A stretch of DNA of 64,000 bases from Octopus vulgaris. Lineage: Eukaryota. The notes beneath the pieces were generated by a model. That model was not told the DNA's origin. It worked only from the letters and a program-made list of their open reading frames with translations, and did not search any database. The number at the start of each line of letters is the position of its first letter. The stretch's first letter is position 1. The stretch is from the NCBI GenBank assembly GCA_951406725.2, contig OX597837.1, forward strand, positions 5,828,001 to 5,892,000, written 5' to 3'. The position numbers and the translations under genes were made by a program. Positions 17,007 through 41,355 of this stretch are shown piece by piece.

Positions 17007-17007
17007 C

Positions 17008-18398
17008 AATTAGATATCGAAGACTACTACGCCTCCATATCGGAGAGCTTGCTGATCGACGCGATTAACTTCGCTAGGAAGTCCTCCACCATCACCGAGG
17101 CCGAGCAAGATGTGATCCTCCACGCACGTAAGACTTTTCTTTTCCACGACGGATCCCACTGGATCAAAAAAAAATCTGTGACCCCCTTCGACGTCAGCAT
17201 GGGTGCTAGCGACTCGGCTGAAATAAGTGACCTTGTGGGCCTTTTCATCCTCCATAGGCTGAAGACCCTATTCACAGGCCTCTCCGGTGGTCTTTACCGC
17301 GATGATGGCCTTTTTGCCCTCCGCAAAATAAACCCCAGGACCACGGATGGGTTCCGGAAAAATCTTTACACTTTTTTTAAAAACTTAGGCCTTAGGATTA
17401 CCTTAGAATCCAACTTAACCAAAGCTAACTTCCTTGACGTTACCCTCGACTTAAAAACCTCACTTTATTACCCGTACCACAAACCAAATGAAGCCCTTAG
17501 ATATATAGACATTAATTCCAACCACCCCAAAAATATATTAGACAACCTAGTAAAAAGTGTCTCAATTAGAATATCTAGCCTGTCCGCTACTGAAGATATC
17601 TTTAATGCCGCAGCCCCCTATTACAACGAGGCCCTGGCCCGCAGTGGCTTTAAATATAAGATCACCTATACTAGTATAGCCCCACGCCAACCCAGGAAAA
17701 ATAGGCGAAGACACATTAGCTGGTACAACCCCCACTTCAACCGTGAGGTCGCTACACCTGTAGCTAAAATCTTCTTCACTCTCCTACAGAAACACTTCCC
17801 CACCCAACATAAGTACTATACTATCCTAAATAAGAACACCATTAGACTCTCCTACTCTACCACGCCCAATCTAGCCAGGAACCTAGCCAACAACAACGTG
17901 AAAAAACTTAATATATCTACTTTTTCCGAGGCCCATCCAACATCCGATAGCAATTGCAACTGCCCTGATAAAACCACTTGCCCCCTCAACAACAACTGCC
18001 TACAGAGGGACCTCGTCTATACATGCGAGGTACGATCAGGCTTCCGATGATAAAGAAAATCGTACATCGGAATGACGTCAAACAGCTTTAAGACCTGCTG
18101 GTATGCCCACACACACTCGTTCCGGCGACCTGATAAATCCAACCAAACTACCCTCGCCGCCCACATCTGGTACCTTAAAAGGAACTCCATCCCCTTCAAG
18201 ATCAAGTGGAGACTACTACAAAAGGCGCGTTCGTACACAGGAGGCCATACCTGCTGTGACCTTTGCATTTCCGAGAGCCTAGAGATCTTGTTCGCCAAAG
18301 GCCATCTCCTCAACAAGATCTCAGAACACTCCCCAAATTGCATGCATAAAATTTATGCAAACTACAAGAACTATAGACCCACCCGGCAACCCGATTGA
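17008..18398 (+). mobile_element. 5'-truncated Penelope-like retroelement ORF (RT + CxCx5C linker + C-terminal GIY-YIG endonuclease), interrupted by two adjacent stop codons; best fit Hydra-type PLE
   Basis: RT motifs: LDIEDYYASI, FDVSMGASDSAEISDLVG, GLYRDDGL, NFLDVTLDL, and thumb YHKPNE..YIDINSNHP. Linker CNCPDKTTC. GIY-YIG as LVY...YIG (TAC ATC GGA at 18063-18071, same frame as ORF 16890-18050 and ORF 18072-18398, after TGA TAA at 18048-18053). C-terminal CDLCISE...LLNK..E....CMH. Starts abruptly at RT motif A directly after a (TA)n tract. Clade assignment is from recalled motif features, not a tree. Confidence 0.92.
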
Positions 18399-18627
18399 CG
18401 ACACCCCACCCACAAAACCCCCCAAACCCCACCGTTCCCCCAGCACCCCCGATTAACTTTCCTCCTAAGAATATTCACATATTGTATATGTACACTTGTA
18501 TATATGTATTGTATATATGTATAGAAATGAATGGGTGTTAGTAGGAATATACGCACGTATGTGAGTGCGTGTATATGTATGTGTATGTGTATGTACATGT
18601 GTATGTGTATGTGTGTGGTTTTTTATA

Positions 18628-18674
<47 letters not shown>

Positions 18675-18677
<3 letters not shown>

Positions 18678-18858
18678 GGTCCCGGGTTGATTCGGGGTTA
18701 ACCACAGTAAATAAGGTACTCAATACATAGCAGAGTAAAATTAATTTATTATATAGAAGGAGCTTCTACAGAGCTAGAACTGTTTCATTCAAGAGAAATC
18801 TTCAGGAAGCTAGTTAACAAGAATTGTATTGGCATTTATACATTTAGGCAGGTTTAAA
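18675..18858 (-). mobile_element. HHR-bearing repeat family F1 (pseudo-LTR-like), inverted partial copy
   Basis: Near-identical to 23048-23231 and reverse complement of part of 24840-25192; begins at a (TA)n tract. Confidence 0.85.
18761..18811 (-). ncRNA. Minimal type-I hammerhead ribozyme (F1)
   Basis: Minus strand reads AGCUUC-CUGAAGA-UUUC UCUU GAAU-GAAA-CAG UUCUAGCU CUG-UA-GAAGCU. Stem I is 6 bp, the core is canonical and the cleavage triplet is GUA. Confidence 0.85.
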
Positions 18859-18943
18859 TAATAAATTTTGGTAACTACTTGAATACAGTTCTCTGTAAAT
18901 ATTTTATATGGTGGACTTTCTGTATATTATACCATTTATGTTG

Positions 18944-24839: not shown

Positions 24840-25192
24840 ATGTACAAGTGAGAGTCTCCTTACTTACCTAAAACTCTATTTTTCTATTTATTCTTTTATT
24901 CTTTTATTTATTCTTTTATCTACTTTACCACCGATTCCTTTGACCACTCCCCTAATAATGATAGTTTTGCGCCATGCCTACCCCCAAAAAAGTCCCCCAC
25001 CACCACCCATTTAAACCTGCCTAAATGTATAAATGCCAAAACAACTCTTGTCTACTAGCTTCCTGGTGATTTCTTTTGAATGAAACAGTTCTAGTCCTGT
25101 AGAAGCTCCTTCTATATAATAAATTAATTTACTCTGCTATGTATTGAGTACCTTATTTACTGTGGTTAACCCCGACTCAATCCGGGACCTAC
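24840..25192 (+). mobile_element. F1 pseudo-LTR-like repeat, longest plus-strand copy (diverged)
   Basis: Reverse complement of 23048-~23425 with substitutions; ends gggacctaca followed by (TA)n. Confidence 0.85.
25057..25107 (+). ncRNA. Hammerhead ribozyme (F1), core mutated to CUGGUGA
   Basis: agcttc-CTGGTGA-tttcttttgaat-GAAAcag..ctgTA-gaagct; A6 is changed, so the copy is probably impaired. Confidence 0.7.
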
Positions 25193-25196
25193 ATAT

Positions 25197-25260
<64 letters not shown>

Positions 25261-25261
25261 A

Positions 25262-25835
25262 ATATATTTTCAACAATATAAAGGAATGGCCCTGGTAGGT
25301 GAAAAAAATTTTCTATTGAATTTTTTGCGACCCTTATATTGATTAATTAATGATTTTTTGACTAATTCTGAAATTAAATCAGCAGTTTATATTTGCTGCT
25401 GACAAGCTAGCTCGATTACGGTAGATTTTGAAAAGTTAGAGTATATATTCCCGAGGCATCGCTGAGGCTGCCTCGAATATTTATTCCTCCTCGCTTCCTT
25501 GCCGATGAGACGAGCCAGTGGTAGATTGACTGGATTAAATTTAATTTAATTTAATTAGGCTGGTTTGCCATAAAGTACGTCGAAACAATGCATTGTCCAA
25601 GGATGATTAAGGTAAATGTTTTTGATTTTCCTTTGATTTCTGAATTACTACTATTTAGCGGTTTGAGTATGGCTGCTCTTTCTGGTGAGACGAATGGCCT
25701 ACCAGGGACATTCCTTTATATTGTTGAAATTATATATATATATAGTCTGTGACTATTTTCTCTTTCTCACTGGACCGCTGGTGGCGAAAATAATTTCTAT
25801 TGGATTTTTTGCTACCCTTATATTGATTAATTAAT
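25262..25835 (+). mobile_element. HHR-bearing non-coding element F2 (~485-nt unit plus ~50-nt terminal direct repeat and a short inverted 5' segment)
   Basis: 25300-25350 is repeated at ~25785-25835. ttcaacaatataaaggaatggccctggtagg (~25269-25299) is the near reverse complement of ~25699-25729. Homologous in blocks to 37625-38157. Flanked by (TA)n. Confidence 0.8.
25496..25603 (+). ncRNA. Type-I hammerhead ribozyme with extended stem II (F2, CCGAUGA core)
   Basis: tccttg-CCGATGA-gacg...(long hairpin)...cgtc-GAAAC-aatgcatt-GTC-caagga; palindromic stem III ACAATGCATTGT. Confidence 0.8.
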
Positions 25836-27999: not shown

Positions 28000-28107
<108 letters not shown>

Positions 28108-28651
28108 GTATTTCAAAATAGAAACTTACCCTTTAGTAGGCAATTTTTACATGCAAGATATAGCAGCCAACACGGCCAAAAACCACAATTTTATAGCAAA
28201 TTTCGAAGTAAATGAAAAATAAAAAAAACTTGTTATATACCGGTTATACGATGGTTTCGAATTTATTTTACAAATAATATCGCTTGCCATCTTTTAATGG
28301 ATAATTTAGCAAGACCATATTATCTACCAGGCGAATTCTCGTCAGTAACCGGCCTAAACAACTAACTTATAATTCAGAGACAAGATAACATGTGTCCCAT
28401 CATTATATGCTATAATTATATATATATACACACATATGTAAACATAGCCACATTTAAAGAGCTCTTCTTGTCACATTCTGTGTCTCGCTGAATCTTCCAG
28501 AAAACTACGTTAAGAGTGCGCGTGTCTGTGGAGTGCTCAGCCAAGTGTGCGTTAATTTCATGAGAACTGGAACCAATCATCCGTTCTTGCTATCAACACA
28601 GGTATCCAGAATCTGTATAGAAAGATCTCATCTATCAGTCTTTGATATTCT

Positions 28652-35424: not shown

Positions 35425-35569
35425 CGCTCGTTTTGAGAAAATTTGGTTTAAATGTTTGACAACTCACCACCGTCCATTGGACGGGGGGCGTTTTGCTCGT
35501 GTATATATATATATATATATGAAAAAACAAGTAAAAAATAGAAAATGCTAAAATAATTTTATAGTGAAC

Positions 35570-35615
35570 ATTTCAGTACCGGTTTCGGTCATTTTGAGAC
35601 CTTTTCAACTGTAAC
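35570..35615 (-). ncRNA. Minimal hammerhead ribozyme with U3:A8 variant core (F3), mirror copy
   Basis: Reverse complement of 36189-36234. Confidence 0.72.
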
Positions 35616-36188
35616 GATTAAATAATTAAATTTAGAAAAATTTGAAGAAAAGTTTTTTTAAAAGAATATTTCTATAGTAGTGTTCAGATTTAAGTGGCAT
35701 TCTGCCTTTCTCTGACTCCCTTGTTTGCACTTGTGTGTTCGAGGTAGTTGTGAGTTCTTGGTAGGGTAGTAGAGGGAAGGCTGGTGAGGAAAGGGGGTGG
35801 GAGAATCTGGGAGTGCCCTGATGGTCGTATTTTGAATGGTCAGTGGCGGCTGGCAGTCTCAGTTCAATTCAGGAGAATATTTATATTGACAGGCTAATTC
35901 TATAAACAAGCCTGTCAATATAAATATTCTCCTGAATTGAACTGAGACTGCCAGCCGCCACTGACCATTCATAATACGACCATCAGGGCACTCCCAGATT
36001 CTCCCACCCCCTTTCCTCACCAGCCTTCCCTCTACTACCCTACCAAGAACTCACAACTACCTCGAACACACAAGTGCAAACAAGGGAGTCAGAGAAAGGC
36101 AGAATGCCACTTAAATCTGAACACTACTATAGAAATATTCTTTTAAAAAAACTTTTCTTCTAATTTTTCTAAATTTAATTATTTAATC

Positions 36189-36234
36189 GTTACAGTTGAA
36201 AAGGTCTCAAAATGACCGAAACCGGTACTGAAAT
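36189..36234 (+). ncRNA. Minimal hammerhead ribozyme with U3:A8 variant core (F3)
   Basis: gttacag-TTGAAAA-ggtc tcaaaat gacc-GAAAC-cg-GTA-ctgaaat; palindrome ACCGGT in place of stem III. Confidence 0.72.
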
Positions 36235-36317
36235 GTTCACTATAAAATTATTTTAGCATTTTCTATTTTTTACTTGTTTTTTCATATATATCAACTCGTG
36301 TGTTCCTTTTCACCCTT

Positions 36318-36535: not shown

Positions 36536-36605
<70 letters not shown>

Positions 36606-36725
36606 AATCAAGGAACGGCCATAATAGGCCATTCACCCACTAGAAATAACAGCCAAAGCTTCAAACCGCAAAACAACATTAATTCCGCAAACCAGGAGAA
36701 AATTAAAAAAACATTTACCCTGCAA

Positions 36726-36830
36726 TTTCTTATACGATGCACCGTTTCATCTATTGTTTAATGGTAAACTAACCTGATTAAATTAAATCAAGCCAATCTT
36801 CCATAGGCCGATAGATTCGTCAGTAAGAAA
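36726..36830 (-). ncRNA. Type-I hammerhead ribozyme with extended stem II (F2)
   Basis: Reverse complement of 37821-37925. Confidence 0.85.
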
Positions 36831-37210
36831 CAGCCAGATCGGAGCAGATATTTTCACGAGGCACTTCAATCCCTGCCTCGGCAATATCTGACCTAAAATT
36901 TTCAAATCATCGCACTCGCGCCAAATTTATCGGCAGCAAATATAAGCCGCCGATTCCATTACGGAATTAACCAGAAAATTCATAATTAATCAATATAGGG
37001 TGGCAAAAGATTTTCGTAGAATTTTTTTGCCACCAGCGGCCTAGTGGGAAAAATAAAATAGTCATAGACCATTTATAAGTTCAACATCACAATCAAGGAA
37101 CGGCCATAATAGGCCATTCACCCACTAGAAATAACAGCCAAAGCTTCAAACCGCAAAACAACATTAATTCCGCAAACCAGGAGAAAATTAAAAAAACATT
37201 TACCCTGCAA

Positions 37211-37315
37211 TTTCTTATACGATGCACCGTTTCATCTATTGTTTAATGGTAAACTAACCTGATTAAATTAAATCAAGCCAATCTTCCATAGGCCGATAGA
37301 TTCGTCAGTAAGAAA
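37211..37315 (-). ncRNA. Type-I hammerhead ribozyme with extended stem II (F2)
   Basis: Reverse complement of 37821-37925; 485 nt from the previous copy. Confidence 0.85.
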
Positions 37316-37820
37316 CAGCCAGATCGGAGGAGATATTTTCACGAGGCACTTCAATCCCTGCCTCGGCAATATCTGACCTAAAATTTTCAAATCGTCGCAC
37401 TCGCGCCAAATTTATCGGCAGCAAATATAAGCCGCCGATTCCATTACGGAATTAACCAGAAAATTCATAATTAATCAATATAGGGTGGCAAAAAATTTTC
37501 GTAGAATTTTTTTGCCACCAACGGCCTAGTGGGAAAAAATTAAATAGTCATAGACCATTTATAAGTTCAACATCACAATCAAGGAACGGCCATAATAGGC
37601 CATTCACCCACTAGAAATAACTAGAAAATCTACGAAAATATTTTTTTGCCACCCTATATTGATTAATTATGAATTTTCTGGTTAATTCCGTAATGGAATC
37701 GGCGGCTTATATTTGCTGCCGATAAATTTGGCGCGAGTGCGATGATTTGAAAATTTCAGGTCAGATATTTCCGAGGCAGGGATTGAAGTGCCTCGTGAAA
37801 ATATCTCTCCGATCTGGCTG

Positions 37821-37925
37821 TTTCTTACTGACGAATCTATCGGCCTATGGAAGATTGGCTTGATTTAATTTAATCAGGTTAGTTTACCATTAAACAATAG
37901 ATGAAACGGTGCATCGTATAAGAAA
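37821..37925 (+). ncRNA. Type-I hammerhead ribozyme with extended stem II (F2)
   Basis: tttctta-CTGACGA-atctat...(G.U-rich hairpin)...atagat-GAAAC-ggtgcatc-GTA-taagaaa; 7-bp stem I, canonical core. Confidence 0.88.
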
Positions 37926-38153
37926 TTGCAGGGTAAATGTTTTTTTAATTTTCTCCTGGTTTGCGGAATTAATGTTGTTTTGCGGTTTGAAGCTTTGGCT
38001 GTTATTTCTAGTGGGTGAATGGCCTATTATGGCCGTTCCTTGATTGTGATGTTGAACTTATAAATGGTCTATGACTATTTAATTTTTTCCCACTAGGCCG
38101 CTGGTGGCAAAAAATTCTACCAAAATTTTTTGCCACCCTATATTGATTAATTA

Positions 38154-38211
<58 letters not shown>

Positions 38212-41304: not shown

Positions 41305-41355
41305 AACGACCTTAATCGATTTTCGAACCTTATTTAGGTTCTCATCAGAGGCGTC
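41305..41355 (-). ncRNA. Minimal type-I hammerhead ribozyme (F5, single copy)
   Basis: gacgccu-CUGAUGA-gaaccu aaaua agguuc-GAAA-aucgau-UA-aggucguu; 6-bp stem II, palindrome AAUCGAUU; adjacent to (TA)n. Confidence 0.85.

Follow-up and report, generated by a model that had tools for sequence, protein, structure and literature searches.

The long-stemmed hammerheads in the window (the whole stretch of Octopus vulgaris DNA that was analysed, 64,000 nucleotides) belong to a superfamily of ~487-bp non-coding repeats, dispersed and tandem, with families designated A, B, E and C, which we read as a non-LTR retrozyme with a selected RNA fold at a probability of about 0.9. The repeat is likely a non-autonomous Penelope-like retroelement (PLE) that resides in (TA)n as tandem and head-to-head arms. 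The whole account, in which such a retrozyme or non-autonomous PLE has a docked stem II loop, its RNA is cut and its insertion is primed at two sites, is considered quite probable.

Copy A in the window is made up of an inverted short arm (25252..25299, minus strand), whose outer (3') end lies at end-site 1, and a main arm (25292..25833, plus strand) of 1.1 units of the ~487-bp family-A repeat, whose 3' end lies at end-site 2, with (TA)n following both ends. Its type I hammerhead occupies 25496..25603 on the plus strand, as do the parts listed here: the core at 25502-25508 with a C at position 4 (C4), stem I at 25496-25501/25598-25603, a palindromic stem III at 25585-25596 and a GUC site, with cleavage predicted after C25597. 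The 73-nt stem II domain (25509..25581, plus strand) begins with a 4-bp base helix (25509-25512/25578-25581), above which lie an internal loop, whose residues 25513-25518 form one predicted strand of a pseudoknot, and a G.U-rich hairpin (25519-25570); the other predicted pseudoknot strand is the 5' flank of stem I (25490..25495, plus strand), CUGGCU in the family. Window copy A is slightly decayed, private changes having broken the pseudoknot (G>C at 25492), one hairpin pair and a downstream hairpin, Hc. Family B is represented by an arm of ~2.1 tandem units with two hammerheads (36601..37621, minus strand), its outer end at end-site 1, and by an inverted arm (37625..38160, plus strand) with its outer end at end-site 2; the hammerhead at 37821-37925 (plus strand) has its core at 37828-37834, a GUA site, a 68-nt stem II domain and predicted cleavage after A37918. 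Copies A and B are 69% identical over 534 columns (E=1e-66), and the hammerhead sequences and coordinates originally reported for both were confirmed. A more distant, 5'-truncated copy, of family C and overlooked in the original description, lies at 28105..28420 (minus strand; core start 28345, 80-nt stem II domain, predicted cleavage after 28247). The window also holds a separate short-stem type I hammerhead motif at 41313-41348 (minus strand), with a 17-nt stem II and an AUUA site region, and at 35513-36291 a 383-bp inverted pair, 99% identical, of another PLE-like family, with a short hammerhead of a U3-A8 core variant near 36196.

Genome-wide, a motif outside the ribozyme gave 3404 matches with the A/B/E spacing and 232 with the C spacing (~3,600 in total), and controls gave 0. 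Of 2205 candidates for copy A in this 2.8-Gb, microsatellite-rich genome, the 40 that were scored gave 44 long matches with identities of 84-96%; family A was found mostly as partial tandems, copy B matched arrays of up to ~9 units at 94-98% identity (40 of 1471 candidates), and family E was found in locus L221. There were 35 distinct cleavage-to-cleavage monomers, 483-494 nt long among those listed, with a unit GC content of 33-37%; no ORF of 150 aa was found within units in 60 loci, and (TA)n-type repeats lay on both flanks of insertions. The first 30 motif-selected loci held 12 distinct hammerhead matches, of which 11 were long-stem family members and the 12th belonged to an unrelated element; no short-stem version of the family was seen among these 12. 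Family-B relatives covered 29-30 of 30 bins in four runs with four organism labels, a comparison of contigs that is blind to ends, strand and level. For the analyses of variation, 350 copies in 160 loci were collapsed to 128 places; one row (L164), truncated by the edge of its locus, was dropped, and three A copies were left unparsed, two with deletions in the 5' strand of stem II and one lacking the upstream anchor. Other hammerheads occur outside the superfamily: a (TA)n-flanked family D (L155:3772-4441, minus strand, and L033), which has a hammerhead with a stem II of 60 nt and contains direct repeats of ~100 bp, is 75% identical between its two copies and has no similarity to A/B/E/C, and unrelated repeats at L015, L019 and L178 carry motifs with 27-42-nt stems II.

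The core CYGANGA was kept in 92 of 94 parsed A/B/E places, as was a GUC or GUA site (92/94), and three helices surround the core with stem I open, as in the type I layout; both window hammerheads are real as motifs, and their self-cleavage is predicted. Both regions folded better than shuffles (z -2.5 for A and -4.4 for B). In a sequence-only alignment of 110 A/B/E copies, for which the shuffle control is inflated by sequence relatedness, 95% of cells paired and 9 of 26 pairs showed double changes, which fell in 4/6 pairs of stem I, 2/6 of stem III (including a dimer-only pair) and 3/14 of the hairpin (one cell each). The covariation of stems I-III claimed from two copies thus holds in natural copies, and double changes likewise distinguish the base helix of stem II in A from that in B/E, and occur within C. 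Changes were then counted on a tree, with private (post-insertion) changes serving as neutral control and five indel-bearing rows removed beforehand. Inherited changes in the core stems kept pairs 15 times (9 double) and broke them 9 times, private ones 9 and 12 times, a difference that was not significant (p=0.15), with all 9 double changes sitting on inherited branches.

Stem III is a 4-bp stem formed by a 12-nt palindrome in A/B/E and has an 8-nt palindrome in C, there is no bulge between positions 9 and 10.1 in any of the four families, and the 10.1-11.1 pair is G-C in A and most C, and A-U, A.C or G-U in B/E. The repeat thus lacks two features that define min-HHRs together with G10.1-C11.1, namely a helix III that is absent or of 1-2 bp and an unpaired base between 9 and 10.1. 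The view of the insertion as unusual for a minimal PLE-type hammerhead must be qualified, as the ribozyme with its 12-nt palindromic stem III is not minimal and one clade of Hydra-type PLEs in this genome has stems II of 51-56 nt. The A10.1.C11.1 mismatch was inherited by several successful subfamilies, at 13 of 64 B/E places (families E and B; L263, L266-L268, L272, L276-L278, L282 and L286), and is also seen in Hy4, one of the autonomous families described below. C4 replaced U4 in 30/30 A copies; U4C is an already known natural hammerhead variant (PMC3088659), and as C4 cores occur in two autonomous families too (Hy1d and Hy3; L232 and L218), the change is recurrent in the genome. Cleavage is predicted to be slower with C4 in A and with A10.1.C11.1 in those 13/64 B/E copies. 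Rfam hammerhead families gave 0 matches at gathering score in the window, and a search of four loci at E<=1 gave 77 matches, none of them to a hammerhead family; the long stem II would account for this. An abundant variant of the hammerhead escapes the standard models here, so that animal ribozyme counts are probably too low.

Insertions had a PLE-like anatomy, with a partial tandem, an inverted 5'-truncated copy and a tail on one end. The 3' ends of arms, followed by (TA)n, fell into two zones, ~129-146 and ~225-240 nt past the cleavage site. In copy A (all plus strand), end-site 1 (~25730-25744) follows the hairpin Hc (25692-25713), both being enclosed by a long-range helix, P1 (25658..25778; strands 25658-25662/25774-25778 and 25682-25690/25765-25773), and end-site 2 (~25830) follows the hairpin Hd (25780-25816) within 25780..25833; across copies, the distance from hairpin to 3' end was 10-20 nt for Hc and mostly 9-20 nt for Hd. 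At 55 of 57 places with one mappable 3' end per strand, one end fell at each site, the remaining 2 combining site 2 with an odd end, and the same site was used twice in 0. This strict one-of-each rule is a new count, and the two fixed 3' ends are likely RT start sites. Head-to-head junctions overlapped by 1-7 nt in 20/42 cases. The stem II hairpin was rejected as a junction hot spot, with 11/84 inversion junctions in the domain against 11.7 expected.

The 5' ends of arms clustered just past the predicted cleavage site: of 243, 54 lay within 40 nt downstream of it, 25 within the following 40 nt and 13 within the 40 nt upstream, in loci that are not a random sample and with BLAST ends imprecise by a few bases. 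The stop rate per base at risk was raised 2.6-fold overall (p=2e-8), 4.4-fold in 78 motif-selected arms and 1.8-fold (p=0.011) in 130 arms that had already passed one cleavage site. This pattern points to cleavage at the hammerhead in vivo, which we regard as probable, and its simplest reading is that many templates are linear RNAs whose 5' end was made by the ribozyme, some of them retaining internal sites uncut. As most passes run on through the cleavage site, templates that are circular or uncleaved would also be used. The same pile-up might arise from pausing of RT at the folded hammerhead, or from a U-rich tract (+15 to +35) favouring AT-rich joins, on a circular template. The 32 of 54 ends that fall over the U tract, at +15 to +40, agree with this, as do arrays of as many as ~9 units and the circles shown for other retrozymes (PMC7229834); however, the excess over the first 14 nt, ahead of the tract, was at least as strong (p=6e-6 overall, 3e-8 in motif-selected loci), and the more stable stem II domain produced no pile-up at its own 3' edge (the 13 ends in 40 nt upstream of the site), which makes pausing or joining at the tract an unlikely source.

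The stem II domain has the same plan in all four families, a base helix, an internal loop and a long G.U-rich hairpin within 63-80 nt. Folding energies of the sense and antisense strands were -24.8/-10.9 (A), -21.9/-9.2 (B), -23.9/-6.4 (E) and -21.7/-11.9 kcal/mol (C), and the suggestion that the hairpin pairs well on the hammerhead strand only is borne out as a real asymmetry in every family. Over the 94 of 97 places parsed, inherited hairpin changes kept pairs 18 times and broke them once, as against 17 and 23 for private changes; with the 5 indel rows out and repairs counted against the model the figures were 19:4 and 13:15 (p=0.008), and slid registers paired at 14-55% compared with 94% in the true register. 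No inherited double-sided change was found in the hairpin of A/B/E, the pair-keeping changes being one-sided. As inherited changes keep pairs and private ones do not, the insertion is a helix selected through G.U/Watson-Crick swaps, and on the evidence of sequence its pairing is demonstrably under selection, without true covariation. Family C follows the plan with an 80-nt domain that is 95% paired, 3 of its 39 pairs being double-changed, which is not above shuffles. The original prediction is right on conservation of the insertion (94/97 A/B/E places, 34/34 C rows), with the correction that its hairpin is kept by one-sided changes; the two results that would have counted against it, a lack of covariation in a larger alignment and absence of the hairpin from most homologues, were not observed, the core stems covarying and the hairpin being widely kept.

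A GGC immediately 5' of stem I is conserved in all four families, as is a GCC on the 5' side of the internal loop of stem II. The predicted pairing between the two changed from C-G to U-A in 3 A places, and in 3 E places it shows G-C to G-U accompanied by U-G to C-G; its outer pair is U-A in A, A-U in C and G-U in subfamily B3, with U.U in 57/64 B/E copies, and its inner pair is C.A in 7/30 A copies. Inherited changes kept the pairing 6 times against 3, private ones 0 against 6 (p=0.017, a post hoc value from about 7 inherited events noticed in the same sequences), and a register slid by +1 still paired 67% of cells. Both spacers lengthen together, from 7 and 5 nt in A to 8-9 and 8 nt in B/E, and in family C the pseudoknot competes with the hairpin base. 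We somewhat favour a GGC/GCC pseudoknot between the stem I flank and the stem II internal loop. The internal loop would then replace the usual loop 2 and dock on the GGC flank through 3-5 bp, with the long hairpin, probably inherited from a PLE pLTR, capping and stiffening it. Of the roles proposed for the insertion, a tertiary contact is the best fit, made by the internal loop at its base rather than by the hairpin tip.

The hairpin might instead be a module bound by protein (RT or a chaperone) for packaging or protein-assisted cleavage, with the GGC/GCC match incidental. The start of its 5' arm (UGGWAGAU) and its AU-rich tip are kept in both sequence and pairing across A/B/E, and partly in C. 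Conserved G.U pairs are typical recognition features. The Anolis PLE hammerhead, as reported, cleaves only with protein (PMC11167929). Set against this, the domain varies from 63 to 80 nt, its upper hairpin is wholly different in C, the pseudoknot columns change in concert, and it is other hairpins that precede the fixed 3' ends, 130-235 nt away, so that a protein-binding hairpin seems doubtful as an explanation, and an RT-binding module, as one of the roles first suggested, is the poorer fit to two 3' ends ~133 and ~233 nt downstream of the cleavage site and to inversion junctions that show no enrichment in the domain.

Outside the ribozyme, the 7-bp hairpin Ha (25380..25401, plus strand; CAGCAGU and CGGCGGC in the two window copies), claimed as conserved, is supported, being fully paired in 27/29 A and 41/49 B/E copies with one A-U/G-C double change, and broken in subfamily B3. 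The companion claim for Hb (25452..25475, plus strand; CGAGGCA/UGCCUCG) failed: it is fully paired in 16/32 A and 28/57 B/E copies, with a near-invariant 3' arm and a variable 5' arm whose breaks are common to whole subfamilies, which leaves it unsupported as a selected hairpin. Hc is fully paired in 26/31 A and 60/62 B/E copies with a U-A/U-G/C-G series, and family C has a hairpin of different sequence at its position. In a survey of contexts in which family labels mix B into C, and from which only pooled pair types were used, Hd paired in 201/212 contexts among those listed (either strand may match) and P1 was parsed in 170/231, with double changes in four columns, mostly on the single branch to C. 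Selection on a multi-domain RNA fold is thus supported and extends further than was proposed, to P1, Hc and Hd. As an alternative, the long arm might be neutral cargo, any stable hairpin being tolerated and selection acting only for a compact, nuclease-resistant RNA, perhaps a circle. This would agree with hairpin changes that are one-sided only, with monomers that are 60-66% paired when folded as circles, and with the high self-pairing of known retrozyme circRNAs (PMC7229834); but in all four families the internal loop, with its GCC, is retained where loop 2 would lie, and the pseudoknot spacer lengths co-vary, which renders this reading rather improbable. A DNA-level satellite or foldback element, its hairpins being decayed DNA palindromes, would suit the AT-rich sequence and the tandem and inverted arrangement, and is largely refuted already by strongly strand-biased folding, the CYGANGA core in 92/94 copies and ends that are polar and fixed.

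Intact Hydra-type PLEs are abundant in the genome (1540 motif matches, control 0), with a DKT motif, a C-terminal GIY-YIG-like motif and (TA)n ends. DKT was present in 4/4 ORFs spanning it, YIG/YVG in Hy1a, Hy1c, Hy3 and Hy4, and a CxCX5C linker in Hy3, Hy4 and Hy5 (not found in Hy1a); a Pfam search of a Hydra-type PLE protein gave no match. (TA)n ends and hammerheads were seen in these PLEs, which are provisionally classed as Hydra-type by their motifs. Their stems II measure 53-56 nt in the Hy1 lineage, 51 in Hy4, ~30 in Hy3, 12 in Hy2 and 10 nt in Hy5, and Hy1 and Hy4 fall with two database proteins in one RT clade (100/98; P0006, lacking the motif, was left out), which places the long stems II (51-56 nt) in a single autonomous clade. 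The end sites of Hy1/Hy4 lie at other distances from their cleavage site than in A/B/E/C, and the GGC/GCC match was absent from the Hydra-type hammerheads. The Hydra-type families sampled yielded no autonomous PLE whose pLTR is homologous to A/B/E/C, the best similarity being Hy4 against A (p=0.013) and C (p=0.027; both uncorrected and in AT-rich sequence), and high comparison scores that came from (TA)n were discarded. As no homologous pLTR was found, a mobilising partner is indicated only by target, ribozyme type and anatomy, and a Hydra-clade PLE is fairly probable in that role.

The window also holds a 5'-truncated Hydra-type PLE of family Hy2 (17007-18400, plus strand; RT, linker and GIY-YIG region), an inverted piece of the Hy2 pLTR (18675-18860) and, directly upstream of copy A, an Hy2 pLTR fragment with a decayed short hammerhead (24850-25190, plus strand). 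This fragment, and an RT fragment beside L008, were rejected as parts of the element, each being a neighbour in a shared (TA)n target. A full Hy2 unit measures ~5.2 kb, including a long non-coding stretch rich in microsatellites, and the 60-nt-stem II hammerhead in L155 was rejected as belonging to Hy2, since it lies outside the 5.2-kb tandem and Hy2 has its own 12-nt stem II. A very young Hydra-type PLE (L091; G000:C1:119514000-119523999) has an 899-aa ORF, many intact copies, 3.62-kb tandem units that are 99.9% identical and no Pfam match, and is a candidate for an in-vitro RT assay.

In the retrozyme mechanism that we propose, a tandem transcript would be cut, slowly or partly, at its hammerheads, and a PLE RT-endonuclease, probably a dimer, would nick both (TA)n strands. 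Two fixed sites of the RNA, ~133 and ~233 nt past the cleavage site, would serve for priming, one per target strand and each just 3' of a hairpin (Hc inside P1, and Hd). The two cDNAs would run upstream until fall-off, often at the ribozyme-made 5' end, and be joined by a few bases of microhomology. A bolder version, which we put forward tentatively, is that an Rfam-invisible hammerhead subtype with an internal-loop pseudoknot and a long G.U hairpin cap runs through a PLE clade and its parasites, and that the ~490-nt RNAs are a complete minimal PLE integration substrate on which P1 and Hd offer start sites to the halves of an RT dimer, strictly one per strand, on linear RNAs with ribozyme-made 5' ends. 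If true, this would demonstrate that PLE hammerheads have a role in vivo and would replace the model in which retrozymes spread through circles only. The role of hammerheads in PLEs and the RNA form that is reverse transcribed are stated as open questions (10.1101/2021.04.23.441226; PMC11167929). The family offers countable genomic evidence on them, in 5' ends at the cleavage site and one start site per strand, and its ~490-nt unit, being small, structured and protein-free, could be used as the substrate when PLE activity is assayed in vitro.

In the literature searched, neither the A/B/E/C family, nor an animal retroelement hammerhead whose stem II reaches ~70 nt, nor a one-site-per-strand count was found described, and supplements or repeat databases may hold instances. 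As described, metazoan non-LTR retrozymes (Cervera and de la Pena 2020, PMC7229834; Li et al. 2026, 10.64898/2026.07.22.740005) are likewise protein-free tandem units with one type I hammerhead each, a GC content of 33-37%, thousands of copies and co-occurring PLEs, and animal retrozymes have been presented without a motif pointing to a partner (PMC7761336). Unlike them, the present unit is 483-494 nt long (described invertebrate units are ~150-450 nt; PMC7229834, 10.64898/2026.07.22.740005), has a 63-80-nt stem II domain, a 12-nt palindromic stem III in A/B/E and a full PLE insertion signature with two fixed ends, and is known here from DNA alone. With the pLTR hammerheads of PLEs (PMC4209133; Hydra clade, 10.1101/2021.04.23.441226) it shares the type I topology, palindromic stem III and (TA)n targets, along with partial tandems, an inverted 5'-truncated copy and a tail at one end, the last being a known property of PLEs (10.1101/2021.04.23.441226). 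It differs from the PLE min-HHRs described (PMC4209133) in its stable helix III and the lack of a bulge after A9, from the 4-8-bp helix II of described PLE hammerheads (PMC4209133; 10.1101/2021.04.23.441226) in its long domain, and from described PLEs in a tail of ~90-105 rather than 30-40 nt (10.1101/2021.04.23.441226) and in having no ORF.

The closest experimental parallel is Poseidon PAc of Anolis, in which two internal RT start sites downstream of the hammerhead explain the tail and both target strands are primed (PMC11167929). In vitro, both strands of PAc used the same sites, whereas the genome here shows one site per strand; and hammerhead cleavage of PAc was dispensable, with no RNA-seq ends reported at the site (PMC11167929), whereas 5' ends here are enriched at the cleavage site. 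Among other hammerheads, helices between domains I and II are common (PMC3088659, where repetitive type I hammerheads were excluded from part of the pseudoknot survey), and in the CChMVd(-) hammerhead an internal loop in domain II can act as loop 2 (PMC2632901). Unlike the hammerheads of those two reports, the predicted helix here would link the sequence flanking stem I on its 5' side with an internal loop beneath a 17-23-bp hairpin cap, in an animal retroelement. The family is a new structural variant that is well explained as a non-LTR retrozyme, or non-autonomous PLE.
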